A DNA stretch of 64,000 nucleotides from an uncultured Candidatus Saccharibacteria bacterium (lineage in GTDB: Bacteria; Patescibacteriota; Minisyncoccia; Phycocordibacterales; Phycocordibacteraceae): positions 50,153-114,152 of the forward strand of contig CAZQGQ010000001.1 in the NCBI GenBank assembly GCA_964593365.1. Reading direction: 5' to 3'. Shown here in pieces: positions 6,359 to 58,046 of this stretch. Both the position numbers and the translations under genes were made by a program. Positions within the stretch are counted from its first letter, which is position 1. Every line of letters starts with the position of its first letter. The notes under the pieces were generated by a model that searched no databases, had not been told where the DNA came from, and was given only the letters and a program-made list of their open reading frames with translations.

Positions 6359-6431
6359 GCTCCTGTGGTGAAACGGATATCATTACTGTCTTCGGAACAG
6401 TCGTTCCAGGTTCGAGTCCTGGCGGGAGCAC
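6359..6431 (+). tRNA. tRNA-Arg (anticodon TCG)
   Basis: Manual cloverleaf fold. Acceptor GCTCCTG/CGGGAGC, D-arm with GG, anticodon stem ACTGT/ACAGT with loop CTTCGGA, T-arm CCAGG-TTCGAGT-CCTGG, discriminator A. No full CCA encoded. Confidence 0.8.
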
Positions 6432-6476
6432 AAGCGAATTGAAGAAACGAAAAGAGTGTGCGACCATAGAGTTCGC

Positions 6477-6550
6477 GCGGATATGGTTTAGTGGTAAAAC
6501 GGGTCCTTGCCAAGGACCAGTCGGGAGTTCGATTCTCCCTATCCGCACCA
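6477..6550 (+). tRNA. tRNA-Gly (anticodon GCC), 3' CCA encoded
   Basis: Acceptor GCGGATA/TATCCGC, anticodon stem GGTCC/GGACC with loop TTGCCAA, T-loop GTTCGATTC. Ends ACCA. Confidence 0.85.
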
Positions 6551-6556
6551 GTCAGG

Positions 6557-6584
6557 AAAGCGGCCCCATAAGGGCCGTTTTTCC
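6557..6584 (+). terminator. Rho-independent terminator after tRNA-Gly
   Basis: AAAGCGGCCC-cataa-GGGCCGTTTTTCC hairpin followed by a T-run. Confidence 0.6.
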
Positions 6585-6741
6585 GTTCATTAGGACCTGT
6601 GTATAAAGGTGTTGGCAGTGGGGATAAAAGACAAAAGTCACTCTCGGTCAATTTCCGTTAGTCCGAGAAATACCCATATAACAGGCCGTACTCTTCAAGG
6701 TCGGAGCACTCATTTGTTTTTCACGAAAAGACACTCTCAAT

Positions 6742-6815
6742 TGGTCGGGCCGCCGAGAATCGAACTCGGTCTCTCTGCTCCCAAAGCAGATGTACTACCG
6801 GTATACTACGGCCCG
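6742..6815 (-). tRNA. tRNA-Pro (anticodon TGG)
   Basis: Reverse complement CGGGCCG-TA-GTAT...TCTGC-TTTGGGA-GCAGA...CCGAG-TTCGATT-CTCGG-CGGCCCG-A-CCA. Full cloverleaf; CCA present. Confidence 0.8.
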
Positions 6816-6845
6816 CTTCAGGGCATCCTAGCACAAACTTTCGCT

Positions 6846-8054
6846 TTATTCCGCCTCTGCAATCGCTTCTTCGAGGATATCGAGAAGATCTGATGCGCGG
6901 CCGCGGAAGTTCGCGACGAGTGTTGGTGTGTTTCCCTTGAGATAGGCATCAAGGTCGCTGTTCATGTCAGCGCGGAAGCTGCGGCGCACATGATCCATGG
7001 TGAGTGCCTGCAGTTCGCGAAGGGAAAGATCCGGTTTCACGCTTCGGGTCGAGATAAGTCCGATAAGGCGTCGGTTCTCGTTTATGACAGCGCCTCCGGA
7101 GGATCCTTCCTGGGCTGCAGGGCCCGCCTTGACCGAGAAGATATCGGTGCGGTTCCCGCCGAAGGTATATACGTCGTTTACGGGGGCGAAGCTTATTGTC
7201 GGATAGAGGGATGAGCGTACCTGGGAGCTCGTCAGGAACTCAGCGGCATAGGAGCCAATGCCTACCTGGTCTCCTATCTCTATATCTGTCGCCGAGGAGG
7301 CAAGCGGGATATGGATGAAAGAAGAGGGAACAGAAGACCCTGTCAGGCTTCCGGTGACCGCCACGAAAGCAAAGTCATCCTGGCCGGTGCCGGTGGGACG
7401 AGTCGAAAGGAAAGTACCGGGGTTGTCCTTTATCCAGTCAGAGGAGATGTAGATAAGTTCGGCAGTGTAGGCATTTTTGGCTGGGCTTCCGGTCCGGATA
7501 TAGCAGTGGCCGGCATTCTCTTGCGGGTAGTCGGTCAGAAGGAAGCCTTGCGCGACGTGTGCGACGGTCATGATGATTCCTTTTGAGTCCACCACCACTC
7601 CAGAGCCCGAGCTTCCGCGAAGGCCTCCTCCTTGGACGCAGATGATATTTACGACCGCACCCTTAAGAAGAGCTTCAGTCGTGAGCTTTACATCAACGTT
7701 GGGGACAACCGGCGCTACGGGCGCTGTTGGCGTTACCGGCGCGACTATTTGCGGGGGAGTAGGAACCGGGAGCGGGGTGAAGGGAACCGTCGGGGTTGTC
7801 GTTGGAACCGGCTTAGGTGTTTGGGGAACTGCGGGAGTGACCGTTGCAGTTGAGCTTGCAGCTTCGGCAAGCTCATCGATCAGTATTTCAAACGGGGAGG
7901 GTCCTGGGTCTATCGCTGGAACCACTTCCGCCACTTCTACCGGCGGAATCTCGATCTCAGGAGGAGGTCCTGAGAACTGGTGGTACTGGGTAACCACGGT
8001 CGCCCAGAAGGTAAGGGCGCCCGCGGCTACGATTGAGACGATGTGCTGGAGCAT
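6846..8054 (-). CDS. Membrane-anchored trypsin-like serine protease with a Pro/Thr-rich linker
   Basis: 402 aa. N-terminal TM helix, a long PTPV-rich linker, catalytic-type motifs TVAHVA and AQEGSSGGAV (GxSGG). Confidence 0.7.
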   Translation of the reverse strand: MLQHIVSIVAAGALTFWATVVTQYHQFSGPPPEIEIPPVEVAEVVPAIDPGPSPFEILIDELAEAASSTATVTPAVPQTPKPVPTTTPTVPFTPLPVPTPPQIVAPVTPTAPVAPVVPNVDVKLTTEALLKGAVVNIICVQGGGLRGSSGSGVVVDSKGIIMTVAHVAQGFLLTDYPQENAGHCYIRTGSPAKNAYTAELIYISSDWIKDNPGTFLSTRPTGTGQDDFAFVAVTGSLTGSSVPSSFIHIPLASSATDIEIGDQVGIGSYAAEFLTSSQVRSSLYPTISFAPVNDVYTFGGNRTDIFSVKAGPAAQEGSSGGAVINENRRLIGLISTRSVKPDLSLRELQALTMDHVRRSFRADMNSDLDAYLKGNTPTLVANFRGRASDLLDILEEAIAEAE

Positions 8055-8113
8055 TATTGGTATGCTACGCCAAAGCAGGCAAAAATACAGTGGTATGGTA
8101 TTCTCGCCCTATT

Positions 8114-8184
8114 GCGGGATTAGTTTAATGGTAGAACATCAGTTTTCCAAACTGAGAGCAGGAGTTCGATTCTCCTATCCCGCA
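8114..8184 (+). tRNA. tRNA-Gly (anticodon TCC)
   Basis: Acceptor GCGGGAT/ATCCCGC, anticodon stem TCAGT/ACTGA with loop TTTCCAA, T-arm AGGAG-TTCGATT-CTCCT, discriminator A. CCA not fully encoded (ACCC). Confidence 0.8.
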
Positions 8185-8267
8185 CCCACTAGTGCTAGTT
8201 CAAGAGACTGAGGTGCTTTGTAAGTAACCGGCTTCTCTGAGTTTATGAACGAAGCTATACTTGCTTC

Positions 8268-14943: not shown

Positions 14944-16059
14944 TTAGTTTTTAATTGTGATTGGAAGGCCGTCGATCACTTGTTTCAGAACGTATGGCTT
15001 CGTGAATGCCCGCTTGCCGTCTGAGGTGAGTGTGCCGGAAGCGCCGGTATAGACCTCTATCTTTGCAAGATAGTCCTTAACGACTTCGGGATCTTCGGAA
15101 CCGGTCTCTTCCATTGCTTCTGCGATCATCATGATTGCGTCGTAGGCTGAGTCAGCACCAATCTCAACATCGCGGTTGTACGCTGCTTGGTACTTTGCTT
15201 CAAAGTCAGACGTGGGCGTGAGAGAGGTTGGGAAGATCATTCCGTTACAGCTGTCACCGCATTGCGTAATGATGCCCTTGTCGACGGTAATGTTGAAGAG
15301 TGGGAGCGTTGATCCGAACTCCTTAAGCTGGCGAGCAGTCACAACCGTAAGGCCAGTCCCGTCGGTCGTCATAACAACCGCGTCGACTGACTTGTCGATA
15401 AGCACCTTCTGGATCTCTGTACGTTCGTCAGAGGTTCCGAGAATTGGCTCGTAGATATGTGCGACCGTTCCTCCAAGCTGTTCGAAGCGCTTCTTGAACG
15501 CAGCTGTCTGGAGCGTCACCCATACGTCATTTGCTCCAAAGAGCGCAACCTTTCGATGTCCTCGCTCATACACGATGTCTGCGAGGTCAGCAGAAAGGAT
15601 CTCGTCATGCTGCCAGGTGTTGAAGAGGTACTCGCTGCTTTCGTTGAACGCAGGAGCGCCAAGAGAAGGAGAGATCACGACCACCTTAGCGGCCGCAGCA
15701 ACGGGAGCGACAGCAAGGCCGGTATTCGACCAGTTAAGGCCGACGATGAACTTGGCCCCGTCAGCAGTAGTGAGCTTCTTGAAGGCACTGATGGACTTCT
15801 GAGAGTCCCCCGCATCGTCCTCATAGATGCCGCGGAGCTGCTTTCCGTTAACTCCTCCGCGCGCGTTCACTTCTTTAATGGCAAGCTCCATGCCGTTTCG
15901 AGACGCTTCGCCCCAGGTGGCTCCTTCGCCTGAAAGGATCATGATGCCGCCAATGGGGATAGAGCCTTCATTAGAGGTGTTGCCTTTCGTTACTCCTACT
16001 CCAACAAGCACGATGAGCACCAGGAGAACAATGGCACCAAGGATAAATTTCTTGTTCAT
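14944..16059 (-). CDS. ABC transporter substrate-binding protein, PBP type 1 (LivJ/branched-chain amino acid family), membrane-anchored. Cassette 1 SBP.
   Basis: 371 aa. N-terminal TM anchor, then IPIGGIMILSGEGATWGE...GGVNGKQL...DD, the Peripla_BP_6 signature. Confidence 0.8.
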   Translation of the reverse strand: MNKKFILGAIVLLVLIVLVGVGVTKGNTSNEGSIPIGGIMILSGEGATWGEASRNGMELAIKEVNARGGVNGKQLRGIYEDDAGDSQKSISAFKKLTTADGAKFIVGLNWSNTGLAVAPVAAAAKVVVISPSLGAPAFNESSEYLFNTWQHDEILSADLADIVYERGHRKVALFGANDVWVTLQTAAFKKRFEQLGGTVAHIYEPILGTSDERTEIQKVLIDKSVDAVVMTTDGTGLTVVTARQLKEFGSTLPLFNITVDKGIITQCGDSCNGMIFPTSLTPTSDFEAKYQAAYNRDVEIGADSAYDAIMMIAEAMEETGSEDPEVVKDYLAKIEVYTGASGTLTSDGKRAFTKPYVLKQVIDGLPITIKN

Positions 16060-16143
16060 GGATAGTTGCTAGGTAAATAATTCTTATAAGTCATAACTTG
16101 ACTCTGGGGGGAATTATTGTGTAGTGCCTACCTATGGTCAATA

Positions 16144-16181
16144 TTTGTCGAACATATGTTGACAAAAGGTTGACAACATAT
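16144..16181. promoter_or_regulatory. Putative operator: inverted and direct repeats of TTGTCGA/TTGACAA around a CATATG core
   Basis: TTTGTCGAACATATGTTGACAAAAGGTTGACAACATAT sits between divergent SBP and regulator genes, 13 nt upstream of the regulator ATG. Confidence 0.4.
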
Positions 16182-16193
16182 AGACTTATACGT

Positions 16194-32113: not shown

Positions 32114-32120
32114 AATAACT

Positions 32121-32143
32121 GTTGTCGGAATTTATCAACAATA
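32121..32143. promoter_or_regulatory. Putative operator half-sites (TTGTCGGAA ... ATCAACAA), with a second TTTTGTCGGATAAT at 32207-32220
   Basis: Repeated TTGTCGGA in the divergent intergenic region. TATAAT at about 32201-32206 lies just upstream of the SBP start. Confidence 0.35.
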
Positions 32144-32220
32144 ATACCCTTCTGCTTGACAAAGAACAAGTAGGGAACATACTTTCGTCCAAGTGCGCAT
32201 TTATAATTTTGTCGGATAAT

Positions 32221-33348
32221 ATGAACAAAAATTGGCTGATCTCGGCAGTTGTACTTGTTGTTGTGATTATCGGCGGTTGGCTTCTGTTAAAAGAAGGTAA
32301 CCAGGGCACATCAGAAACGGGCCCAATTAAGATTGGTGTTTCGGTTCCGCTTACGGGCGAAGCGGCGAGTTATGGAGAGGCTGGACGTGCTGGTCTGATG
32401 TTGGCTTTAAAAGAAATAAATGATGCTGGCGGTATTGATGGGCGTTCCGTTGAACTAATTATTGAAGACGATAAATGTAGTTCTGCGAGCGTTAGTGCAT
32501 ATCAGAAACTTATCAACGTAGACAAGGTGGTCGCCATTATTGGGCCAGTGTGTTCTCCGGCTGCAGGACCAGCTAACCCTATCGCACGTGAGGCAGGGGT
32601 TCCAAGTATTATGATTGGCGCTTCGGCTCCGGGTCTTGCTGGAGGGGACGACTCTGTTTTCAGCGGATATGCGTCAGACGCTCTTCAGGGACAGTTCGTT
32701 GCAGAGTACGTATACAACACTCTCGAGAAAAGAAACGTTGCTGTCATGTATGAAAACAACGACTGGGGCAAGGGCATCCAGGAAGTCTTCACTAAGCGCT
32801 TCAAGGAACTCGGTGGCACCATCGTGTTTATCGAAGGGGCAGCTCAAGGTTCAAAGGACGTTAAGTCTATTCTCGCGAAAGTTAAAGCAGCCAATCCAGA
32901 CATGATCTACATGCCTGCGTTCCCTGCACTTGCTACGATCGCTATGAAGCAGATGAAAGAGCTTGAAATTACCGCCCCTGTGATCGGTGGTGATGCCTTT
33001 GAATCTGAAGAATTCTTGACTTCGGGTTTTGCTGACGGTGTCATGTATATCACTGGCGCCGTGGGTAACCCGGATGACTTCCAGGCAAAGGTTAAGGCGG
33101 TATCAGGAGACGACGCGATTATAAACATCGTCACCCCTCTTGGTTACGATGCGCTTAAAATACTCGCGAAGGTTATCGACGAGCGCGGAAGTACAAAGCC
33201 AGAAAGCATAATTGCAGGCCTAAAAGCACTCAGCTACACGGAAGGAATTTCATTTCCAATGATTAGCTTTGATGCTAATGGCGATCTTAGGGAAGCAGCA
33301 TACGATGTGAAAATCGTTCGTGGGACTGAATCCGAAATCGTTAAATAA
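32221..33348 (+). CDS. PBP1/LivJ-family ABC substrate-binding protein, membrane-anchored. Cassette 2 SBP.
   Basis: I prefer the ATG at 32221 (MNKNWLISAVVLVVVIIGGWLLL...IKIGVSVPLTGEAASYGEAG...GGIDGRSVELIIEDDKC). The track ORF starts at 32122. Confidence 0.8.
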   Translation: MNKNWLISAVVLVVVIIGGWLLLKEGNQGTSETGPIKIGVSVPLTGEAASYGEAGRAGLMLALKEINDAGGIDGRSVELIIEDDKCSSASVSAYQKLINVDKVVAIIGPVCSPAAGPANPIAREAGVPSIMIGASAPGLAGGDDSVFSGYASDALQGQFVAEYVYNTLEKRNVAVMYENNDWGKGIQEVFTKRFKELGGTIVFIEGAAQGSKDVKSILAKVKAANPDMIYMPAFPALATIAMKQMKELEITAPVIGGDAFESEEFLTSGFADGVMYITGAVGNPDDFQAKVKAVSGDDAIINIVTPLGYDALKILAKVIDERGSTKPESIIAGLKALSYTEGISFPMISFDANGDLREAAYDVKIVRGTESEIVK

Positions 33349-34206: not shown

Positions 34207-34324
34207 AACGTTTAGAGAAGTGTATCATTATTTGTCACTTCATACGAACAAAATTAATATCAAGCTTAAAAGAGAGCCTACATTAAGCATATTTGTGTTA
34301 TTTGAAGGTAGCAAACGCGTACAC

Positions 34325-34347
34325 CATTTGACACATATGTGTAAATG
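34325..34347. promoter_or_regulatory. Imperfect palindrome CATTTGACACATATGTGTAAATG immediately upstream of the SBP3 start codon (putative operator)
   Basis: Symmetric about CATATG and 8 nt upstream of the ATG at 34356. A second TTTGTCAC...GAACAAA element lies at 34229-34254. Confidence 0.4.
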
Positions 34348-34355
34348 TCCGGTAT

Positions 34356-35456
34356 ATGAAAACAAACACACTGCTTGTTATAGGGGTCTTGATTGTCGTG
34401 GTTGTGGGCGGCTGGTTCGTTCTTAACGAAAAGGATGGATCAGAACAATCTGAAACCGTTAAAATCGGCCTTATTCTTCCTCTAACCGGGGATCTTGCTC
34501 ACTTCGGAGAGGCGGGACAACGGGCTGCCTCTCTCGCTATTGAGGAAATCAATGCAAACACAGGATTCAGCTATAACTATGAACTTGTAATCGAAGATGA
34601 CTCATTCGATGCAAGAAAAACAGCAAGTGCACTCAATAAGCTAATCAGTGTTGATAGAGTAGATGCGGTTGTCAGTGTTGGTTCCGGCCCAGGCAACGTG
34701 GTAGCCCCCATTGTTGAGAAGAATAAAATCCCCCATATTGGTCTTGCGTCTGATCCTGTTGTTTCGGATGGGGAATACAACTTCATCCATTGGACTCGAC
34801 CTCAAGAAGAAGTAGACACCATGCTTACTGAACTTAAGGAGCGTGGTCTAACCCAGGTTGCAGTTATGGGTGTCAATCACCAAGGCTTTCAAGCGATAAC
34901 AGATGACTTCAAGGCAAAGGCGTCTAAAGCTGGAATTACGATAGTAAGCGATCAACTCTTTAACACGGGTGAGACTGACTTTAAAACAGTCATCGTAAAC
35001 TCACAGCGCACCAACCCAGACGTCTATCTTCTTGGAGCGTTTAGTCCTGAAGTCGAAATCCTCGCAAAGCAAATGAAAGAGCTTGGCATAACCAAACCAC
35101 TAACCTCAATTGAATCGTTTGGACTTAGTGCAACACCAGAAGTGTTTGAAGGGCACTGGTTTATTGATTCCGCCGTTGTCACTGGGGGATTCAGCGATAA
35201 GTATCGTGCAAAATACAATGCCGCCGTCGGTCCTACTGCTGCCAACATCTATGACGCGCTTAATCTAATAGTGCTCGCTACGGAGGAAGCAGGTAAAGAT
35301 AATCGCCCAACCGGGACTGACATTGCTGTTGCTCTTGGAAAAGTAAAAGGATATTCAGGCGCATTTGGTCCTCTTTCTGTTAGTCCAGAGGGACAGTTCA
35401 TCTCACAGCCTTCAGTAAAGATAATTAGCAACGGGAAACCGACGGAGGTTGAGTAA
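34356..35456 (+). CDS. PBP1/LivJ-family substrate-binding protein, membrane-anchored. Cassette 3 SBP.
   Basis: MKTNTLLVIGVLIVVVVGGWFVL...VKIGLILPLTGDLAHFGEAG. Confidence 0.8.
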   Translation: MKTNTLLVIGVLIVVVVGGWFVLNEKDGSEQSETVKIGLILPLTGDLAHFGEAGQRAASLAIEEINANTGFSYNYELVIEDDSFDARKTASALNKLISVDRVDAVVSVGSGPGNVVAPIVEKNKIPHIGLASDPVVSDGEYNFIHWTRPQEEVDTMLTELKERGLTQVAVMGVNHQGFQAITDDFKAKASKAGITIVSDQLFNTGETDFKTVIVNSQRTNPDVYLLGAFSPEVEILAKQMKELGITKPLTSIESFGLSATPEVFEGHWFIDSAVVTGGFSDKYRAKYNAAVGPTAANIYDALNLIVLATEEAGKDNRPTGTDIAVALGKVKGYSGAFGPLSVSPEGQFISQPSVKIISNGKPTEVE

Positions 35457-36255: not shown

Positions 36256-36356
36256 TGAGGTGTAGATTATCACCATATGGCCATATATGCCACTCATGAG
36301 TAATAACTTACGCTTCCCCGGCATTGGCAGTTACTAAACCCCTGCCAGTAAAACGT

Positions 36357-37436
36357 ATGAAAACAAAGGTTATTTTCGGTTTGCTGGCGATTGTGGCAGT
36401 CGCCCTGCTTATCGGCACGTCAGACAAGGAAGCTGATTCTGAGTCAGAAATCAAGATTGGAGTGGTAACTCCTCTCACCGGAGGGGCTGCCTATTGGGGA
36501 GAATCTTCTCTCGTTGGAATCAGGCTCGCAGAGCAGGAACTCCAAGAGAAAGGGATTCCGGTCCGGGTGATTGTTGAAGATGGGGAGCTTGATCCGAAGC
36601 TTGCCCTAAGCGGTGCACAGAAGCTCGTGAATATAGATGGCATTGATGCCATGTATACCGAGTTCAATCCGGCCGTCATCGCAGTAAGCTCGTTCCTTCA
36701 AGATAAAGATCTTATCCAGATCTGCAACGCGACTCCGGTTTCCCCACTTGCTCTAAGCGAAAACTTCTTCAAAACGTACTTAGATTACGAAGAAAGCTGC
36801 GAGCAAGTGGCGAACGTCCTGCAAGGTCGTGGCCACACGAAAGTTGGGGTTCTGAAAATGAACCTCGAACACGGAGACCTGTGCTTGAAAGGAATACGAA
36901 ACGTGTTTGGCGATAACGTTGTGGTCGAAAACTACAACACTGGAATAGTTGACTTCCGGACCCCTCTTGCAAAGCTTGAAGCCTCCGGAGTCCAGGTCAT
37001 CTTCCACGCTGCGTTTCAGGCCGAGACGTTGGCATCGCTACGAAATATGCGCGAGCTTGGGATGTCGCAGCCGTTCGTCGGCCTTGCTGAGACCATGACT
37101 CCTGGTGTCGCTGAGGAGTTCGAAGACGTGCTAGAGGGGGCTGTAGTCTTTGGGCTTCCGACAGTGTCTCCTGACCTACTTGCAAGACTGAATACGGTTG
37201 CGGTCGATGAGAAGCTTGTAGACCAAAATGCGGCTGCTCTCGCGTATCTTCATATCACGCAACTTGGCGAGGCTCTTAGCGAGTGTAAAAAAGAGACAGC
37301 CTGTGTACGAGAGAAGTTGAAACAGTCCCCCGCGAATGCAGGCGTAGGATTCCAGGGTTTTACGGATCGCATTGCCGGGTTCGATACGCTCATCCAGGAA
37401 TGGAAAGATGGGCAATTTGTCCCCGTTTCTGAATAG
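36357..37436 (+). CDS. PBP1/LivJ-family substrate-binding protein. Cassette 4 SBP.
   Basis: I prefer the ATG at 36357 (MKTKVIFGLLAIVAVALLIG...IKIGVVTPLTGGAAYWGE). Confidence 0.8.
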   Translation: MKTKVIFGLLAIVAVALLIGTSDKEADSESEIKIGVVTPLTGGAAYWGESSLVGIRLAEQELQEKGIPVRVIVEDGELDPKLALSGAQKLVNIDGIDAMYTEFNPAVIAVSSFLQDKDLIQICNATPVSPLALSENFFKTYLDYEESCEQVANVLQGRGHTKVGVLKMNLEHGDLCLKGIRNVFGDNVVVENYNTGIVDFRTPLAKLEASGVQVIFHAAFQAETLASLRNMRELGMSQPFVGLAETMTPGVAEEFEDVLEGAVVFGLPTVSPDLLARLNTVAVDEKLVDQNAAALAYLHITQLGEALSECKKETACVREKLKQSPANAGVGFQGFTDRIAGFDTLIQEWKDGQFVPVSE

Positions 37437-37496: not shown

Positions 37497-38372
37497 ATGG
37501 ACATCGTCCCGCAGCTTATCGTCAACAGCCTCATCGCAGGCTCTCTCTACGCGCTTGTCGCGATGAGCTTCAATCTCATCTTCGGCGCGACCAAGTTCTT
37601 CAATCTCTCGCACGGCGTCTTGGCCGCTGTAGGCGGATATACCGCCTTCTTCCTTGGAACGACGCTTGGAGCTCCGGTTTCAGTTGCGGTAGCTGGGGCA
37701 GTGATTGCTGCTGCGGCAATCGGATATGGATTCGAGTTCTTTATCTTCCGCCCGCTTCGAAAACGAAAGGCATCAAACCTCGTTCTCCTCGTTGCTTCCT
37801 TAGGAGCCTTTACCGCAGTTGAGGCCATTATTGCCATTCTCTTCACGAGCCAATTCCGAACGCTTTCCTCGCTTACCGGAACGCCAGGCGTCGTCCACCT
37901 TGGAACAGGCGTGATGACGTATGTGCAGGTAGTCATCCTTGCTTCAGCCGTAGCAATCCTAATTCTTCTCTGGCTCGTGCTCACGCGTACTTCCTTTGGA
38001 AAGGCGGTACGAGCCGTCTCTGATGATGAAGAGGTCGCAAAGATTGTTGGAATTAATACGAACAAGATCATCGGCATCGTTTTTATCGTAGGATCTGCGA
38101 TCGCAGGACTTGCTGGCGTATTCGCTGGCATGGATACGGGCATCGAGCCTCGCATGGGCTTCGTACTTCTATTGAAGGGAGTTATCGCTGCAATTGTTGG
38201 CGGCATTGGAAGCGTGTATGGCGGATTCCTGGGAGCCTTCCTTCTTGGCTTTGCCGAGAACTTCGGTATTTGGTACATCAGCGGAGAGTGGAAGGACGCG
38301 ATCGCTTTTGCGATTCTGATCATCTTCTTGCTTGTACGCCCGCAAGGAATCTTGGGTAAGAAGAAAACATAA
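37497..38372 (+). CDS. livH: Branched-chain amino acid ABC transporter permease (LivH-type)
   Basis: 291 aa, 8 TM. BPD_transp_2 pattern. Ends ...LVRPQGILGKKKT. Confidence 0.85.
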   Translation: MDIVPQLIVNSLIAGSLYALVAMSFNLIFGATKFFNLSHGVLAAVGGYTAFFLGTTLGAPVSVAVAGAVIAAAAIGYGFEFFIFRPLRKRKASNLVLLVASLGAFTAVEAIIAILFTSQFRTLSSLTGTPGVVHLGTGVMTYVQVVILASAVAILILLWLVLTRTSFGKAVRAVSDDEEVAKIVGINTNKIIGIVFIVGSAIAGLAGVFAGMDTGIEPRMGFVLLLKGVIAAIVGGIGSVYGGFLGAFLLGFAENFGIWYISGEWKDAIAFAILIIFLLVRPQGILGKKKT

Positions 38373-38375
38373 TTT

Positions 38376-39242
38376 ATGGAATATCTTATTCACCTGGCGA
38401 TCCTGTTCTCGATCTTCGCAATATTGGCTGTATCTCTCCAGCTTCTTGTCGGATACACCGGCCTTCTCTCCGTTGCCCATGCCGCTTTCTACGGTATCGG
38501 GGCATACGTAGTTGCGCTCACTCTTTCCAATACCGGGTTTGGATTTTTCCCAGCGCTTCTCATGGGAATACTCATAAGCGCGGCAGCGGCCTTCTTGATT
38601 GGTCTGGTGCTCTCGAAGTTCCGTGATGATTACTACGCGCTTGGCTCCCTAGGCTTCAACGTCATCGTATTCTCGATATTCCTTAACTGGCAGGAGGTAA
38701 CACGGGGTCCGCTAGGTATCCCGGGAATCGATCGGCCACAGCTCTTTGGTTTTGTTTTTTCAGAGAACATCGCCTTCCTTATTCTTGCTCTCGTATTTCT
38801 CCTCATTATTTATGGGATCGGGAAATTCATAACGGAGTCTTCTTTCGGGCGCGCGCTCCAGGCGATACGCGAGGACGAACAGGCGCTTTCAGTATTCGGG
38901 TACCGCACCTCATGGTTCAAGCTTGCGATCTTTGTCGTGAGCGCCGCGATGGCGTCAGTTGCAGGCGGACTCTTCGCTTCCTATATAACGTTCATTGATC
39001 CAAGCTCGTTCACGATCGTTGAGTCGATCTTCATGCTCTCCCTTATTATCCTTGGCGGACTCGGTACGCTTCGTGGAGCTATCCTTGGCGCTCTCGTGCT
39101 CATCCTCCTTCCGGAAGCGCTTCGCTTCGTTGGCTTTACGCCAGACATCGCAGCCCAGATGCGCCAAGTGATCTACGGCCTCATGCTCGTCCTTCTTATG
39201 CTGTATCGGCCGCAGGGACTGGTTGGTAAGTACAAGCTTTAG
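38376..39242 (+). CDS. livM: Branched-chain amino acid ABC transporter permease (LivM-type)
   Basis: 288 aa. GLLSVAHAAFYGIGAY...LGGLGTLRGAILGALVL. Confidence 0.85.
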   Translation: MEYLIHLAILFSIFAILAVSLQLLVGYTGLLSVAHAAFYGIGAYVVALTLSNTGFGFFPALLMGILISAAAAFLIGLVLSKFRDDYYALGSLGFNVIVFSIFLNWQEVTRGPLGIPGIDRPQLFGFVFSENIAFLILALVFLLIIYGIGKFITESSFGRALQAIREDEQALSVFGYRTSWFKLAIFVVSAAMASVAGGLFASYITFIDPSSFTIVESIFMLSLIILGGLGTLRGAILGALVLILLPEALRFVGFTPDIAAQMRQVIYGLMLVLLMLYRPQGLVGKYKL

Positions 39243-40105
39243 TTTGTCACTAGTGTTTTGATCTCTTTTCGTATAGCCTCAGCGCGCTTAACATTGCGAG
39301 TTATCGTAAGTGTTGTTTTGCCTGTTTGATTCACAATGCTTTGCATTTCTCTGGCATTAAACTCAGTAAGGTTCTTTACCCCCTCGAACATTGCCTTTAT
39401 ATCTTGGAAAATAAAGTTAGGCACTTTAGTTTCGAAGACAAAGTCTCCAATAACGGTTACGTGGAAGTTATCGCTCGGAGCGCCGTAACCTGAAAGCTTG
39501 CTGTAGAGTTTGAAGTGAAAATTGGAGGCGTTATGAAGCTGGGGTACCAGGCGATTGAGAAGGGTGTGTGAGCCGCTCGCCATATACCAGTCGATATTCA
39601 TGGGCTCAAACCCATGCGCAAGCTCAACTGAACCGTCAGAGCGAAGCACTTGAATCCAAGAATAGTAATTCTTGCTATATGCATTCTTGTCCTTGTGGTC
39701 GTTGTCTCGATAATAGTATGAGATTGTCAGGAGTGCGTGGTCCCAGAACGTATCCATCTCTGTCACACGATCAAATACATAGGCTTTGGTTTCGCCCTCC
39801 TCAAGAATGATAGTTGCCTTGGTGATTTCGTTTGAAAGATGCGTTTGCTTTACTCGATCCGTGAATTTTATGAGGTTCTGTACCCAGGCACTGTAAAGAG
39901 AAAGCGTGCCGTTGTTTTTAACTATCACGCGGTCTGCAAGAAGCTGGCGCAGGATCTTATAGAACCCTTGAAGAGTCATGCCAGAAGGGTATTTGCTGAG
40001 AAAGAACTCAAAAGCCTCCTTGCTTGTTATGCCCGGTTTACGGGACAAAATATCAAGCACTATCCCTTCAGGGGAGGGTTTTTGTTCGTAGGGGTTAGGA
40101 ATCAT
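39239..40105 (-). CDS. Divergent putative regulator occupying the regulator slot of cassette 5 (weak wHTH-like N-terminus, no clear TrmB motif)
   Basis: 288 aa. LDILSRKPGITSKEAFEFFLSKYPSGMTLQGFYKILRQLLADRVIV could be a winged helix. The C-terminal domain is unlike the other seven regulators. Confidence 0.4.
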   Translation of the reverse strand: MIPNPYEQKPSPEGIVLDILSRKPGITSKEAFEFFLSKYPSGMTLQGFYKILRQLLADRVIVKNNGTLSLYSAWVQNLIKFTDRVKQTHLSNEITKATIILEEGETKAYVFDRVTEMDTFWDHALLTISYYYRDNDHKDKNAYSKNYYSWIQVLRSDGSVELAHGFEPMNIDWYMASGSHTLLNRLVPQLHNASNFHFKLYSKLSGYGAPSDNFHVTVIGDFVFETKVPNFIFQDIKAMFEGVKNLTEFNAREMQSIVNQTGKTTLTITRNVKRAEAIRKEIKTLVTN

Positions 40106-40206
40106 AGGGAGTAAACGTTTCGTTTAGAATAGTATAATAGTTGATTAACTGTTTACTTTTGTCAACTACATCGTAGAGTGCTGCCGTACCAAATAACGGC
40201 ACACAT

Positions 40207-41301
40207 ATGCAAAACGTACGACAGTTAGTAACTCTGGTTGCGGCAGTTCTGGTTGTTCTTGGTGGTGCGTATGTGCTTTCCCAAGGCTCTTCAAGCTCTA
40301 GTGATACCGTGAAGATTGGGTTCATTGGTCCACTTACCGGATCGATGGCGAGCATTGGTGAATCAAGTCTTGCGGGCGCCATGCTCGCCGTAAAGGAGAT
40401 AAATGATAAAGGAGGTCTTCTTGGGAAAGAGGTTGAGCTTATCGTTGAAGACGACAAATGCTCTGCTGACGGAGCAACGGCGATTAGTAAACTTATTAAC
40501 GTAGATAAAGTAGTCGCTATCTCCGGCCCTGATTGTGGAGCCTCAGGCTCTGCGGCGCTTCCTATAGCAGAAGAAAAGCAAACTCCGGTTGTCATTCGTT
40601 GGGCATCCGCTCCTCCTCTTGCGAAGATAGGAGAGTATATTTTCCGTATCTATCCTTCAGATGCGTTTCAGGGGAGGTTTGTCGCTGATTACATCTTCAA
40701 CGAGCGAAAGGAACGGAAAGTAGCTGTTCTCTACGTCAAAAACGTATGGGGTCAGGGCATTACCGAAGTGTTTGTCGAACGGTTTAAAGAGCTTGGGGGC
40801 GAAGTAGTGTTTGAGGAAGGGGTGCTTGAAGACACTCGGGATCTTAAGACTCAGTTGAACTTGATACAGAATTCAGGCGCAGACATTCTCTTTGCGCCGC
40901 TCTACGCACCAAACGGGGTTATCGCACTTCGACAGATGAAGGAGCTTGGGTTCAAGATCCCCGTTGTCGGAGGAGACGTATTTGAAAGTGCTGAAGTTCA
41001 GGAGGCTCCTGGCGCAACTGGCGTTCTATTCTCAGCTGCGATCATCACAAACCCAGGAGACTTCCAAGCGCGTGTAGCGAAAGAGGTAGGGCGCGACGGG
41101 AGTCGAGTGACTGCGCCACTGGGGTACGACTCGGTCATGGTTATCGCTCAGGCAATTGAGCGCGCTGGCTCTCTGGATCGAGAAGGGATTCGAGATGCCC
41201 TTCAAGAAACGTCATACGCAGGAGTTGCGTTCCCCATGATTGAATTCGATCAAGACGGAGACCTGCTTGAGGCACGGTACGAAATTAAAAAGATCCACTA
41301 A
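40207..41301 (+). CDS. PBP1/LivJ-family substrate-binding protein. Cassette 5 SBP.
   Basis: MQNVRQLVTLVAAVLVVLGGAYVL...VKIGFIGPLTGSMASIGESS...GGLLGKEVELIVEDDKC. Confidence 0.8.
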   Translation: MQNVRQLVTLVAAVLVVLGGAYVLSQGSSSSSDTVKIGFIGPLTGSMASIGESSLAGAMLAVKEINDKGGLLGKEVELIVEDDKCSADGATAISKLINVDKVVAISGPDCGASGSAALPIAEEKQTPVVIRWASAPPLAKIGEYIFRIYPSDAFQGRFVADYIFNERKERKVAVLYVKNVWGQGITEVFVERFKELGGEVVFEEGVLEDTRDLKTQLNLIQNSGADILFAPLYAPNGVIALRQMKELGFKIPVVGGDVFESAEVQEAPGATGVLFSAAIITNPGDFQARVAKEVGRDGSRVTAPLGYDSVMVIAQAIERAGSLDREGIRDALQETSYAGVAFPMIEFDQDGDLLEARYEIKKIH

Positions 41302-42082: not shown

Positions 42083-42101
42083 GTAGATACTATATGCCTC
42101 A

Positions 42102-42124
42102 GTTGTCGAGTTGTCGACGACACA
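42102..42124. promoter_or_regulatory. Putative operator: tandem GTTGTCGA GTTGTCGACGACA (contains a GTCGAC palindrome)
   Basis: Lies in the 80 bp divergent intergenic region between regulator 6 and SBP6. Confidence 0.4.
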
Positions 42125-42161
42125 TTTACATCAGGACGTATTTGGAATAAAGTCAAGGGCA

Positions 42162-43298
42162 ATGAAAAACATATTCTGGATTGGAGCGGCAGCTGTCCTC
42201 CTTGGGATCATTACTATCTTTAGCATTTCAGGCCCTAAGCCTGCTTCCGGAGAACCGATAAAAATTGGAATCTCAACCATGCTGAGCGGAGACTACGCTG
42301 CACTGGGGGACAATATTGTAAAAACAGCAGAATTGGCTGTTGCTGAAGTTAACGTCAAAGGAGGTATTAATGGAAGGCCACTGGAGCTTGTAGTTCAGGA
42401 TGCAGGCCTTGATAGTAAGACCGGTCTTGCGGCAGCACAAAAACTTATTAACGTTGACGGCGTTAAATATATTATTGGCGGTACATCCAGTAACGGTACG
42501 CTTGCTGCAGCTCCATTGGCAAATGAGCACAAGGTTATTTATATGACCCCCGTTACAGGCGGAGCAAATGTGGACTCTGCTGGCGAATATATCTTCCGCG
42601 TTGCAAATGGTGACCTCCTTGCTGGTAAGCAGCTTGCAGAAGCAGCAGTGAAGCTCGGGTACAAGAACGTTGCAGTTGTAGCTGAAGTTACTGAATACAC
42701 TCTCGACATCAAGAAGAGTTTCGAAGAAGCGATTAAAGACCAAGGAGCAGTAGTTGTTGCATCTGAGGAGTTTCAGCCAGGGACGACCGACTTCAGAACT
42801 ATTATTGCGAAAGTGAAAACGCAAAACCCTGAAGCCATTCTTATCGTCTCTCAAACGGGAGTGGGCGGGGCAAACTTCGTAAAACAATCTCGAGAAGCGG
42901 GTATAGAAGCACCCCTCTTCTCAGACTTTAACTTTGTAGCAAATACGAGCGCCAAAGAAATAGTTGGATCGTTTGAGGGAATTTATTTTGCTGACCCTGC
43001 GTATGGAGCAGACGCAGGAGAAACAAAAGCGTTCTTTGAGAGATACGAAATAGCATATGGTTCTCAACCCTTTATTCCTTTTCACTCAGCATCTACATAT
43101 GACTCGGTCATGATGGTTGCTGACGCCCTTAAGGCTGTGGGAGATGACAGCATAAAAGTGCACGACTGGCTTCTGGGTGAAGTACAGAACCGCAAAGGAC
43201 TTATGGGGACATTCTCTATTGATCAGCAAGGAAACTCAGATTTAGGCTTTGTTATTAAGGTTATACGAGATGGGAAACCGGAGGTGGTTTTCAATTAA
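42162..43298 (+). CDS. PBP1/LivJ-family substrate-binding protein. Cassette 6 SBP.
   Basis: I prefer the ATG at 42162 (MKNIFWIGAAAVLLGIITIF...IKIGISTMLSGDYAALGD). Confidence 0.8.
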   Translation: MKNIFWIGAAAVLLGIITIFSISGPKPASGEPIKIGISTMLSGDYAALGDNIVKTAELAVAEVNVKGGINGRPLELVVQDAGLDSKTGLAAAQKLINVDGVKYIIGGTSSNGTLAAAPLANEHKVIYMTPVTGGANVDSAGEYIFRVANGDLLAGKQLAEAAVKLGYKNVAVVAEVTEYTLDIKKSFEEAIKDQGAVVVASEEFQPGTTDFRTIIAKVKTQNPEAILIVSQTGVGGANFVKQSREAGIEAPLFSDFNFVANTSAKEIVGSFEGIYFADPAYGADAGETKAFFERYEIAYGSQPFIPFHSASTYDSVMMVADALKAVGDDSIKVHDWLLGEVQNRKGLMGTFSIDQQGNSDLGFVIKVIRDGKPEVVFN

Positions 43299-43317
43299 AA
43301 TACGCTACACTATTCGA

Positions 43318-44049
43318 GTGAACACACTCGAGACCAAAGACCTCGCAAAAGTATTCGGCGGCGTGAAAGCTGTTAACGGTCTTTCTGTCTCCATTCCAAA
43401 GGGAAAGATTACGGGTGTCATTGGTCCAAATGGATCAGGTAAAACGACGCTTACGAACGTTCTCACAGGAATCTATCCTATAGATGGAGGTGTCGTTGTT
43501 ATCGAAGGCAAGGAACGCTCAAAGATAAAATCGCATGAGGTGTTTTCACTTGGCCTCACGCGCACCTTCCAAAACGTACGGGTGTTTGAGCAGGTAAGCG
43601 TGCTTGATAACGTGCTTATCGCACTCACGCGTCGCAACATCCTAGGCTCTTTGTTTGAGCGCGCTAATGGAGAACACGCAAAGAAAGCACAAGAAGTACT
43701 TGAGCGTGTAGGGCTCTGGGATAAGCGAGAGGCAAACGCCTCAGAACTTTCATACGGACAAAGAAAGCTTCTTGAGATTGCTCGCGCGCTTGCAACTGGC
43801 ACAAACACTATTCTTTTTGACGAACCATACGCAGGACTGTTCCCTGAGATGGTGAAGCTTGTCTCAAGCATCATGCGAGATCTCCGAAGCGAAGGGAAAA
43901 CCATCGTGCTTATCGAACACGACATGGCGCTTATTCGGGAACTCTGCGACTACGTTATCGTCATGGATGCAGGAAAACTTCTCGCGCACGGAACCGCAGA
44001 AGAAGCGCTTTCCAATAAGGCAGTTATTGAGGCGTACTTGGGCGTGTAG
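43318..44049 (+). CDS. livG: ABC transporter ATP-binding protein (LivG-type)
   Basis: LETKDLAKVFGGVKAV...GPNGSGKTT...LSYGQRKLLEIARAL...ILFDEP...EAYLGV. The TTG-initiated track ORF (43249) overlaps the SBP by 50 nt out of frame. The GTG at 43318 is a more plausible start. Confidence 0.8.
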   Translation: MNTLETKDLAKVFGGVKAVNGLSVSIPKGKITGVIGPNGSGKTTLTNVLTGIYPIDGGVVVIEGKERSKIKSHEVFSLGLTRTFQNVRVFEQVSVLDNVLIALTRRNILGSLFERANGEHAKKAQEVLERVGLWDKREANASELSYGQRKLLEIARALATGTNTILFDEPYAGLFPEMVKLVSSIMRDLRSEGKTIVLIEHDMALIRELCDYVIVMDAGKLLAHGTAEEALSNKAVIEAYLGV

Positions 44050-44050
44050 G

Positions 44051-45160
44051 CTATCTGTCGATAGATACGAAGGCTCCGTTTCGGATTACCTTGAATGAGG
44101 TTGGTTTATAGGCTGTTCCGTCTGTCTCGATACTTATGGAGCCACTGACGCCATCATAGTTTTTTACTGAGTGAAAGAATTCAAGCATGCAGTCGGTTTC
44201 ATCTGCGCAGCGGTCATAGGCAGCCGACTCAAGCATGAGTCCGTCATAGGCGTTTCGAGCAAAGACGTCGGCTTCTTGGCCAAATCGTTCTTTGTAGCGA
44301 CGATTAAAGTCGAGCACATCCTCACTTGGAGGAAGCGGTTCGTCAGAAGAGATGTAAAACCCCTCTGCGGAAGCTCCTGCAATTTCAATGACACTAGGAT
44401 CCTCGTTCTGGGAGTTCCCTAGTATACGAGCCTCTATTCCAAGCTCGTCTGCTTGTTTTAGAAGATTGCCCAGAGGTTTCGCTAGTTGCACAACGAATAT
44501 GACATCTGGGTTCTTTTCCTTAATTTTTGTAAGCTCAGTCCGAAAGTCTGACGCGTCTATGAGCGTGACTTGTTCAAGCAGGACTTCACCGCCGCGCTCT
44601 TCGAATGCCGTCGAGAAGTGCTTGCGGTAGTCTTCGCCAAGCGGGGTGTTGTAGTAGAGGATTGCTGCTGTCTTTGCGCGCAGTGTATTTGCAGCAAACG
44701 TTCCAAGTTCAGTTGCTTTGAGTTTGATGGATGTGTTGGTCGAGACTACGTATGTATGACCAAGAACTGAATCCGGATTGGGAGCCAGGTTTACACCGAT
44801 TAGCTGATGCTTTTCTAGGAGATCAATGACTGGTACAAAGCCTGCTACGCAAAATGACCCGCCTAGTAGAGTGATGCGGTCACTTTCGATAAGTTTCGTA
44901 ATTGCAGAAAGGGCATCTTTAGGTTGGCACGCATCTTCGTAGATGACCTCGACTATAGAGCCCCGAGCAGCCAAGTCTTCTTTTGCAAGTTCAAAGCCAT
45001 TGCGTACTCGTTCTCCCAGCACGGCAAAGTTGCCTGACAGGGGAATCAAAACACCAACACGCAGCCCTTCCTTCTTTGGCCCTTGGGAAAGCTGAAAACC
45101 AAGGATCACGGCGGCAAGGATAATCACAACCGCACCGACTACCAGATGGCTCTTATTCAT
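44051..45160 (-). CDS. PBP1/LivJ-family substrate-binding protein. Cassette 7 SBP.
   Basis: MNKSHLVVGAVVIILAAVILG...LRVGVLIPLSGNFAVLGE. Confidence 0.8.
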   Translation of the reverse strand: MNKSHLVVGAVVIILAAVILGFQLSQGPKKEGLRVGVLIPLSGNFAVLGERVRNGFELAKEDLAARGSIVEVIYEDACQPKDALSAITKLIESDRITLLGGSFCVAGFVPVIDLLEKHQLIGVNLAPNPDSVLGHTYVVSTNTSIKLKATELGTFAANTLRAKTAAILYYNTPLGEDYRKHFSTAFEERGGEVLLEQVTLIDASDFRTELTKIKEKNPDVIFVVQLAKPLGNLLKQADELGIEARILGNSQNEDPSVIEIAGASAEGFYISSDEPLPPSEDVLDFNRRYKERFGQEADVFARNAYDGLMLESAAYDRCADETDCMLEFFHSVKNYDGVSGSISIETDGTAYKPTSFKVIRNGAFVSIDR

Positions 45161-45173
45161 GGTTTCTGCAAGT

Positions 45174-45187
45174 TATTGACAACGTGC
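45174..45187. promoter_or_regulatory. TTATTGACAACGTG motif (TTGACAAC half-site shared with other cassettes)
   Basis: Lies in the divergent intergenic region between SBP7 and regulator 7. Confidence 0.3.
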
Positions 45188-45271
45188 AGAGGTTAGGATG
45201 TATACTACGAGTGGCCAATATCACCGCGTGGTGGCACACACCACCAACATAAGAAACACCATATAAACTCT

Positions 45272-57942: not shown

Positions 57943-57995
57943 GAGAGATGGTTTATAGGGCCTTATTGCTTACTTTTTCACTGAACTGTCAAGCT

Positions 57996-58013
57996 GTCAA
58001 TAGAACCTATAGA
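57996..58013. promoter_or_regulatory. Direct repeat CTGTCAAGCTGTCAAT (TGTCAA half-sites)
   Basis: Lies in the divergent intergenic region of cassette 8. Confidence 0.35.
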
Positions 58014-58046
58014 CACTTGATGATTTTTTCTTAAGAATGATGACCT

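Follow-up and report, generated by a model that had tools for sequence, protein, structure and literature searches.

Predicted promoters and candidate operators between eight regulator genes and their divergent binding-protein genes in a Candidatus Saccharibacteria contig

The genes considered here lie in a 64-kb stretch of DNA from an uncultured Candidatus Saccharibacteria bacterium (GenBank assembly GCA_964593365.1, contig CAZQGQ010000001.1, positions 50,153 to 114,152 of the forward strand), which is referred to below as the window and numbered from its first base. The window includes eight cassettes (C1 to C8), in each of which the gene for a regulator of ~250 aa (R1 to R8) is divergent from a gene for a Liv-type solute-binding protein (SBP; S1 to S8) of the Peripla_BP_6 type. 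The SBP genes occupy 14944-16059 (S1), 32221-33348 (S2), 34356-35456 (S3), 36357-37436 (S4), 40207-41301 (S5), 42162-43298 (S6), 44051-45160 (S7), and 58047-59183 (S8). The sole permease pair of the window is found at 37497-39242, and the sole LivG/LivF-like ATPase pair at 43270-44049 and 46031/46160-46774. With gene starts corrected, the spacers between regulator and SBP genes run from 16060-16193 (C1), 32114-32220 (C2), 34207-34355 (C3), 36256-36356 (C4), 40106-40206 (C5), 42083-42161 (C6), 45161-45271 (C7), and 57943-58046 (C8); together they measure 886 bp and have a GC content of 38%, compared with 51.5% for the window. Arrays of SBP/regulator cassettes that share one permease set are also present in the related loci L005, L007, L010, L012, and L094. 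For an alignment-based search of loci, the eight regulators together offered no sufficiently conserved stretch, and R1 alone served as the query. This report presents the enrichment and conservation of short words that recur in the cassette spacers, and their relation to predicted promoters and to the regulators.

A preliminary description of the window had listed copies of TTGTC(G/A)A and its variants in seven of the eight spacers, and had proposed them as half-sites of a candidate shared operator family. All of the strings quoted there are present. The coordinates are exact for C1 (16144-16181), C2 (from 32121, and 32207-32220), C5 (40157-40168), and C6 (from 42102), whereas those for C7 and C8 are shifted: the C7 string begins at 45173, one base away, and the C8 string CTGTCAAGCTGTCAAT lies at 57986-58001, ten bases from the 57996-58013 first given. 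The figure of seven spacers holds for the hexamer TGTC[GA]A/T[CT]GACA, whereas the strict heptamer TTGTC[GA]A/T[CT]GACAA occurs in five of the eight. The heptamer has eight copies (9.0/kb) in the cassette spacers and one in the 4,523 bp of other spacers, with 17 copies (0.27/kb) in the whole window. Similarly, the hexamer is found 11 times in the cassette spacers and once in the other window spacers (4.5 kb); exact TTGACA/TGTCAA is found eight times in the cassette spacers, in none of the 60 other window spacers, and 14 times window-wide. Among 605 k-mers evaluated with an order-1 model of the cassette spacers themselves, TTGACA/TGTCAA is the top de novo 6-mer (8 observed vs 0.76 expected, P 1.3e-6) and TTGACAA is the top-ranked 7-mer.

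The enrichment extends to a 223-kb set that comprises the window and 12 related loci, in which 30 spacers upstream of TrmB-like genes can be compared with 78 other promoter-bearing spacers; orthologous spacers in this set are not independent observations. The hexamer T[CT]GACA occurs at 10.2/kb and in 24/30 of the TrmB spacers, compared with 1.05/kb and 13/78 of the others (9.4/kb vs 1.26/kb when the window is left out). Exact TTGACA is present in 19/30 vs 8/78 of these spacers, and GACAAC in 15/30 vs 4/78. A lack of enrichment, or an equal frequency upstream of unrelated genes, was what the preliminary description had named as fatal to its proposal; neither is seen in the 223 kb. Beyond single words, the R1, R2, and R6 spacers share an inverted repeat, (T)GTTG-N11/12-CAAC(A), the right arm of which (YGACAAC) corresponds to the TTGTCG(A/G) noted earlier, and R3 has a looser TGTT-N9-TGACA. 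In the 223-kb set TGTTG-N11/12-CAACA has seven matches, six of them in spacers called upstream of TrmB-like genes and the seventh, attributed to L003, upstream of its R1 orthologue as read off the sequence; 11 other spacings of TGTTG...CAACA yield two matches in total.

In bacteria TTGACA is the sigma-70 −35 consensus. This was not recognized in the preliminary description, several of whose copies are predicted −35 boxes (16159, 32156, 42112-42117, 40160-40165, and both arms of the C8 palindrome). The promoters described here are pattern matches of a consensus scan, from which start sites are deduced; a −35 box is called where a TTGACA-like hexamer lies, upstream of a gene, 16-18 bp before a −10 hexamer whose second base is A and whose sixth is T. 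Such a −10 accompanies the hexamers at 16159-16164, 16141-16136 (− strand), 32156-32161, 42117-42112 (− strand), 58010-58015, and 40165-40160 (− strand), and is lacking for those at 16146-16151, 16170-16175, 42104-42109, 57987-57992, 34328-34333, and 32209-32214.

The C1 element is the one with the deepest set of relatives. The predicted R1 promoter (+ strand) consists of a −35 TTGACA at 16159-16164, a 16-nt spacer, and a −10 TAGACT at 16181-16186 that ends 7 nt before the ATG at 16194. The R1 operator candidate (16157-16178, + strand) is a 22-bp imperfect palindrome, TGTTGACAA-AAGG-TTGACAACA, whose left arm holds this −35 box and whose right arm lies within the promoter spacer; considered as an inverted repeat, it has arms of 12 nt at 16154-16165 and 16170-16181 that are 92% complementary. 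Four relatives of R1 from genomes and 80 from metagenomes provide 73 non-redundant upstream regions, of which 61 (protein identity 35-79%) have TTGA(C) 34-38 nt before the ATG, with the −10 located 6-8 nt upstream of the ATG. Anchored on the −35, these 61 regions have the consensus TG-TTGACA-A-N4-t-c-g-A-C-A-A-C-A. The T and the G that flank the −35 are kept in 60/61 and 56/61, and ACAAC at +14 to +18, in the promoter spacer (16173-16177 in the window), is kept in 49-57/61 (1.2-1.9 bits), which matches the −35 hexamer itself; flank, TTGACA, and ACAAC all fall within 49-61/61. The conserved palindrome, TGTTGACAA-N4-TYGACAACA, is present whatever gene adjoins it. An SBP gene is the upstream neighbor in just 6/62 R1-family loci, the other neighbors being diverse, so that the element appears to belong to the regulator gene, a signature of autoregulation.

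A position weight matrix (PWM) of the R1 element, from which the window was excluded, reaches 31.1 at 16157-16178; the next non-overlapping match in the window scores 10.0, and nothing elsewhere in the window exceeds the range of 7-15 obtained with shuffled sequence. Regulation of other cassettes by R1 was considered and rejected, as the matrix identifies no further site in the window. Of the matches of at least 16 in 526 kb of collected loci, nearly all are upstream of R1-family genes; the palindromic nature of the site places them on both strands. One R1-type site is found ~2 kb downstream of its regulator gene. In some R1-family loci a second R1-type palindrome is present (L082 132-153, L086 548-569, and L065 4075-4099), either ~70 bp upstream of the first or 2 kb beyond the regulator gene on its downstream side, which hints at looping or at extra regulon members.

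A further element of C1, u1 (TTTGTCGAACA, 16144-16154, + strand), has the opposite orientation to 16170-16176 and occupies the interval between the divergent −35 boxes of R1 and S1. Most relatives with at least 45% identity retain it as (T)TGTCG(A/G)ACA, and it is weaker in the family-wide matrix; GTCAA, from the S1 −35 box, is also kept in the closer R1 relatives. The predicted S1 promoter (16113-16141, − strand) has a −35 TTGACC at 16141-16136, a 17-nt spacer, and a −10 AATAAT at 16118-16113, and is retained as TTGAC(C/G)-N16/17-CAATAAT in the S1 orthologues of L014 and L036. An upstream open reading frame of 12 codons that ends with ATGA at the S1 start was also considered; it is not conserved in S1 orthologues.

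The C2 spacer carries a duplicated element, one copy at each end. The R2-proximal operator candidate, TTGTTGATAAATTCCGACAACA (TGTTG-N11-CAACA; 32120-32145, − strand), is positioned directly after the predicted R2 −10 (TATTAT, 32146-32141, − strand) and 6 nt before the ATG at 32113. In four R2-like spacers a −10 is immediately followed by TGTTGAT-N5-CCGACAAC(A), again TGTTG-N11-CAACA, located 0-11 nt before the ATG; the form kept in R2 relatives can also be written TGTTGAT-N5-CCGACAACA, and CCGACAAC corresponds to 32121-32128 in the window. Within these four spacers, TATTGTTG(A/G)... and CC(G/A)ACAAC are invariant or nearly so. The S2-proximal candidate, TTGTCGGATAATATGAACAAAAAT (32209-32232, + strand), overlaps the S2 start codon at 32221 and forms a 24-nt direct repeat with 32122-32145, 87 bp away and 79% identical. 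The stretches listed in the preliminary description correspond to the R2-proximal element (32121-32143) and to part of the second copy (32207-32220). The S2 orthologue of L005 has CTGTCGGAATTTATGGACAA over the same start-codon position. In L007, where the S2 orthologue has no R2-like partner, the operator at the ATG is missing and the promoter TTGACA-N17-CATACTTT (CATACT) is kept; its counterpart in the window is the predicted S2 promoter, TTGACA-16-CATACT (32156-32183, + strand). The persistence of the L007 promoter without the operator copy indicates that TTGACAA at 32156 is a −35 box and that the TTGTCGG elements are the probable operators.

Cassettes 6, 8, and 3 each have a conserved element of their own. 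The R6 promoter-operator candidate, TGTGTCGTCGACAACTCGACAAC (42102-42124, − strand), joins the −35 TCGACA (42117-42112) to the spacer word CGACAAC (42102-42108), and AGTTGTCG is a direct repeat within this region. The predicted R6 promoter (− strand) continues through a 17-nt spacer to a −10 TATAGT (42094-42089) located 6 nt before the ATG at 42082. The form TGTyGT...GACAACT recurs without variation in six orthologues of R6, of which two adjoin non-SBP genes. Abutting the candidate is the predicted S6 promoter (42125-42153, + strand; TTTACA-17-TAAAGT), in the region of which TGTAAA and CTTGAC are invariant in the R6-oriented alignment of orthologues. The R8 candidate (57987-58015, − strand) comprises TGTCAAT-N7-ATAGACA at 57995-58015 and a third copy, TGTCAAG, at 57987-57993, and reads TGTCTAT-N7-ATTGACA-GC-TTGACAG on the R8 strand. 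Three R8 orthologues (54-75% identity), one without an SBP neighbor, keep TGTCAAT-N7-ATTGACA-N3/4-(T/C)GACA. In the window, the right arm (+ strand) coincides with the −35 of the predicted S8 promoter (TAGACA-17-AAGAAT, −35 at 58010-58015, + strand), and the other arm with the predicted −35 of R8. The R3 candidate, TTTGTTCGTATGAAGTGACAAA (34231-34252, − strand), belongs to a pattern, TGTTCGTAYG-N3-TGACA, that is conserved in three R3 orthologues, where TGACA is the −35 box; those of L005 and L010 read TTGACA-17-TAG(T/C)AT-N6-8-ATG. On the S3 side, CATTTGACACATATGTGTAAATG (34325-34347, + strand; palindrome at 34328-34345) is kept as TTTGACA-N~10-AAATGT in L005 and L010, and the TTGACA within it lacks a −10 at promoter distance from the annotated S3 start.

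Given this geometry, the mRNAs of R1, R6, and the R3 orthologues are predicted to be leaderless, with starts at or near the ATG. Near the predicted S1 and S6 starts the word AGTCAAG (SBP strand; 16098-16104 and 42152-42158) is invariant among orthologues, and may be either part of the start region or an additional half-site.

In cassettes 5 and 7 the recurrent word appears to have no comparable role. The C7 word is not retained as an operator would be: TTGACAA is replaced by GGGTATC (TTATTGACAACGTG by TTATGGGTATCGAG) in an R7 orthologue with 81% identity. The R7 operator candidate is a different element, GAGTGGCCAATATCACCGCGTGGTGGCA (TATCAC-N6-GTGGCA; 45209-45236, + strand), which R7 has in common with R4. 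The R4 candidate, GAGTGGCATATATGGCCATATGGTGATA (36268-36295, − strand; palindrome TATCAC-N6-GCCATA), overlaps the −35 and −10 of the predicted R4 promoter (GTGGCA-16-GATAAT, − strand), and the block GAGTGGCnnATATnnCCnnnTGGTG is invariant among C4, C7, and the R7 orthologue of L010 (L010 5191-5301), three sequences in all. Cassette 4, which had been set apart from the rest, pairs with C7 through this shared palindrome, and the TGGCAG-N11-CTGCCA considered as the R4 operator lies elsewhere, in the S4 leader, where it resembles a hairpin of the 5' untranslated region.

The C7 word itself is enclosed by a hairpin of the S7 5' leader (TCTGCA...TGCAGA; 45165-45190, − strand; −10 kcal/mol, z −3.6). 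The S7 orthologue of L010 (5271-5298) has unrelated sequence and a hairpin in the same position (z −5.8). GC-rich hairpins are likewise located 5-9 nt upstream of the SBP starts in S5 (40182-40201, z −3.8) and, weakly, in S4 (36325-36347, z −1.3), which suggests that a leader structure is conserved in these SBP genes (S4, S5, and S7).

The C5 word is conserved just as a −35 box. The R5 promoter (40137-40165, − strand) is predicted to consist of a −35 TTGACA at 40165-40160, the spacer GTAAACAGTTAATC at 40156-40143, and a −10 AACTAT at 40142-40137; −35, spacer GTAAACAnTTAATC, and −10 show little or no variation across four R5-family spacers. The R5 relatives carry other specific elements, among them TAAAC-N5-GTTTA, kept in four relatives and represented in the window by the palindrome TAAACG-N3-CGTTTA (40112-40126, − strand) just before the ATG at 40105. 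The TAGTTGA/TCAACTA arms reported to flank the C5 word are not conserved in these relatives. The R5 family is wide (38-76% identity) and its members are often without an SBP neighbor.

Seven of the eight regulators contain the TrmB winged-helix domain (PF01978, 32-61 bits vs a cutoff of 25.6); R5 (39239-40105) has no Pfam match and is not placed in the TrmB family. The Pfam scan also gives weak MarR/IclR helix-turn-helix matches among the regulators, and finds no C-terminal TrmB sugar-binding subdomain in any of the eight, which are 248-277 aa long compared with 335-342 aa for the TrmB chain 3qph. R8, the sole regulator modeled, has an AlphaFold model with a pLDDT of 91 (41-sequence alignment). 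In Foldseek comparisons this model matches TrmBL2 over its full length (5bpd, E 4e-12), TrmB (3qph, E 5e-10), the TrmB sugar-binding domain (2f5t, E 1.5e-5), and PLD/Nuc folds (~E 1e-4). The model predicts a winged helix-turn-helix (wHTH), a long dimerization helix, and a PLD-like C-terminal half as in the TrmB effector domain. By sequence, R1 matches TrmB and TrmBL2 weakly (E 0.08-0.2), and R1, R2, and R6 are just 17-22% identical to one another. An N-R-x-x-x-Y pattern is kept in the recognition helix of all the regulators, and the helices of R4 and R7 are near-identical (NRRNVYDS(L/M)NRL). Recognition-helix residues were also considered as a predictor of operator type, and the eight sequences gave no clear rule.

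Characterized TrmB proteins bind palindromes at the promoters of SBP-dependent ATP-binding cassette (ABC) transporter genes, repress or activate according to position, are autoregulated in some cases, and bind inducer at the C-terminal domain (PMC4158304). The cassettes resemble the TrmB system of the trehalose/maltose operon in Thermococcus litoralis and Pyrococcus furiosus in the wHTH, in the adjoining SBP-dependent ABC transporter genes, in the 3qph fold, and in the predicted palindromic operator at the promoter. They differ from it in having sigma-70 promoters rather than archaeal BRE/TATA, operators other than TACT-N3-AGTA, proteins of ~250 aa that lack the sugar-binding subdomain by Pfam, and a Liv/HAAT-type instead of a sugar transporter, with eight regulator/SBP pairs per permease. 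The Thermococcales glycolytic motif (TGM), TATCAC-N5-GTGATA, is bound by TrmBL1/Tgr, and autoregulation of Tgr has been proposed (PMC4158304). The R4/R7 palindromes are similar to it and also lie over a regulator promoter (TATCAC-N6-GTGGCA in C7, TATCAC-N6-GTGGTA in L010, TATGGC-N6-GTGATA in C4); however, their spacer is one base longer and their arms are imperfect, the likeness comprises three sequences and does not extend to R1, R2, R3, R6, or R8, and R4 and R7 appear to be local regulators, unlike the global TrmBL1/Tgr. TrmBL2, the best full-length structural match, is likewise ~260 aa long without an extra sugar-binding subdomain, and is a Thermococcales chromatin protein that binds, with little specificity, to coding as well as intergenic DNA (PMC4158304). 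In contrast, the sites described here are predicted to be specific, palindromic, and located at promoters. Autoregulated winged-helix repressors of the MarR/IclR style bind as dimers to a palindrome in a short divergent spacer, repress their own genes, and are released by a ligand. The cassettes share this architecture and predicted logic, with the operator over the −35 and −10, and differ in protein family, in effector domain, and in a half-site that is the −35 consensus in several cassettes.

The explanation that best accounts for the recurrent words, with a probability of roughly 70%, is that they are cis-acting DNA of tightly packed, back-to-back sigma-70-type promoters, namely −35 boxes together with regulator-specific operators that overlap or abut them. 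The first of these two layers would consist of near-consensus −35 hexamers (TTGACA, TCGACA, and TTGACC) that serve both regulator and SBP promoters. The second would consist of regulator-specific imperfect palindromes of ~21-22 bp that contain or abut the −35 hexamers: TGTTGACAA-N4-TTGACAACA with the upstream TTTGTCGAACA for R1; TTGTCGGA-N5-AT-N-AACAA, present twice, one per spacer end, for R2; TGTCGTCGACAAC-TCGACAAC for R6; TGTCAAT-N7-ATTGACA with a third copy in the spacer for R8; TGTTCGTAYG-N3-TGACA for R3; the different, TGM-like palindrome for R4 and R7; and GTAAAC/GTTTAC elements for R5. In this arrangement, each regulator dimer would bind its own palindrome. The dimers of R1, R3, R6, and R8 would cover their own −35 and promoter spacer, against or over the divergent SBP −35, whereas that of R2 would cover the transcribed start of R2 and the S2 start codon. 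Each regulator may consequently repress its own gene and co-regulate the divergent SBP gene until a ligand at the PLD-like C-terminal domain releases it, and all eight SBPs would feed one shared ABC permease. What has been observed is the enrichment, the conservation, the association with the regulator gene, the promoter-like geometry, and the TrmB/TrmBL2-like fold; the identity of the binding protein, the direction of regulation, the transcript starts, and the ligands are inferred. The palindromes of R1, R2, R6, and R8, placed at a predicted −35, spacer, or start region, appear to conform to the operator placement of the TrmB family. Two earlier proposals are affected: the words do overlap the regulators' own promoters and the elements appear to be regulator-linked, which makes autoregulation the natural prediction, and the single operator family proposed for seven cassettes gives way to several operator types, with the repeat shared by R1, R2, and R6, and loosely by R3.

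Several points weigh against this explanation. The operators are predictions from sequence patterns, and whether regulation is positive or negative is guessed from where the elements lie. Plain promoter function alone would conserve −35 and −10 hexamers, and in C8 both arms coincide with −35 boxes. The orthologue sets are small outside the R1 family (R2 4, R3 3, R4/R7 3, R5 4, R6 6, R8 4). The center-to-center spacing of half-sites ranges from ~6-7 bp in R6 through 13 between u1 and u2 of R1 and 15 in R8 to 16-17 in TGTTG...CAACA, which is uncomfortable for a single binding mode. Finally, the elements of R1, R2, R6, and R8 (and R3) match none of the characterized TrmB motifs TACT-N3-AGTA, TATCAC-N5-GTGATA, and TACT-N7-8-GAGTA.

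It is unlikely that promoters alone suffice, that is, that every TTGACA-like word is a −35 hexamer of divergent promoters squeezed into ~100 bp and no regulator reads them. Such an account draws on the identity of TTGACA with the −35 consensus, on the copies listed above that have a −10 16-18 bp away, on the joint conservation of the C5 hexamer with an ordinary −10, and on the resemblance of inverted TGTCAA...TTGACA pairs to two divergent −35 boxes. Yet it does not predict the frequency of TTGACA upstream of TrmB-like genes relative to other promoters and to the other window spacers, nor the R1-family positions (TG and ACAAC) that are not read by sigma and are as conserved as the hexamer. Nor does it accommodate the copies without a −10 at promoter distance (16146-16151, 16170-16175, 42104-42109, 57987-57992, and the start-codon copy at 32209-32232), the N7 spacing of the R8 palindrome, fixed in four orthologues, or L011, in which inspection by eye finds no good −10 16-18 nt from the left arm.

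The version put forward in the preliminary description, in which seven paralogues inherited one TTGTC(G/A)A core, or its variant in which one global regulator reads them all, is improbable. The T[CT]GACA core in 7/8 spacers, the GTTG-N11/12-CAAC repeats of R1, R2, and R6 with a YGACAAC arm, and the N-R-x-x-x-Y helix pattern of all the regulators would all fit a common origin. However, conservation is absent for the C7 copy, the one in C5 is a −35 box amid R5-specific elements, R7 and R4 are united by a different palindrome, and the R1 PWM finds C1 alone, its best score in any other cassette being within the shuffled range. A global regulator is further contradicted by the way in which each type of operator stays with its own regulator gene in unrelated neighborhoods.

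Recurrence by chance, as short words in AT-rich spacers, is suggested by the low GC content of the spacers and by the relaxed form of some listed instances (TTGTCAC, TTGTCGG, and CTGTCAA), and is effectively refuted by the k-mer statistics, the tenfold enrichment in independent loci, and the deep conservation in the R1 family. Scarcely credible is a response regulator reading Spo0A-type boxes, for although TTTGTCGAA equals the Firmicutes 0A box TGTCGAA (16144-16152, word 16146-16152, identical to the published consensus), most copies are TTGACA or YGACAAC, the elements co-vary and travel with TrmB-like genes, the phylum is another one, and Spo0A is not known outside endospore-forming Firmicutes (no Spo0A search was made here), so that the identity is taken as coincidence.

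The remaining genes of the window bear on the identity of the host. They include NusA, RNase Y, EF-G, a CCA-adding enzyme, and the type IV pilus proteins PilB and PilC, and the relatives of the window's genes are in metagenome-assembled genomes of Parcubacteria, Saccharibacteria, and Patescibacteria. An archaeal host, which the TrmB genes and the lack of Shine-Dalgarno sequences might suggest, is ruled out by NusA, RNase Y, EF-G, PilB/C, and the Parcubacteria relatives; these genes and the Patescibacteria relatives identify the host as a bacterium of the Candidate Phyla Radiation (CPR). An Rfam scan of the window returns tRNAs alone, and at 6359-8188 a trypsin-like protease gene is flanked by four tRNA genes (Arg-TCG, Gly-GCC, Pro-TGG, and Gly-TCC).

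Autoregulated winged-helix regulators encoded next to the SBP gene of an ABC transporter are already known; the bacterial sigma-70 setting, the candidate operators on and around the −35 hexamer, an R1 module that would span the phylum, and the array of eight cassettes are new. A full-text literature search found no paper that pairs TrmB with Patescibacteria or Saccharibacteria, and nothing specific on CPR promoters, leaderless mRNAs, or bacterial TrmB operators. A more far-reaching proposal, which is tentative and has the odds somewhat against it, is that TrmB-like operators of Patescibacteria use the −35 hexamer itself as a half-site, that one palindrome supplies both −35 boxes of a divergent promoter pair as well as the repressor site, that SBPs are chosen substrate by substrate, and that the R1 module is a phylum-wide, undescribed regulon signature. 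If this is true, a single palindrome would control the regulator gene (in many cases leaderless) jointly with the partner gene, and arrays of sensors and SBPs would let a minimal genome pick the binding protein for its single permease, one substrate at a time.

Very little work has addressed how Patescibacteria (CPR) control transcription, and the cassettes provide operator predictions for at least five groups of TrmB-like regulators, that of R1 being backed by 61 sequences. They are also a reminder that a recurrent TTGACA in bacteria is to be weighed first as a −35 box. Leaderless, autoregulated regulator genes are suggested to be common in the phylum. The modular design of the locus, with eight individually regulated SBPs for one Liv-type permease, bears on how organisms with reduced genomes scavenge nutrients.

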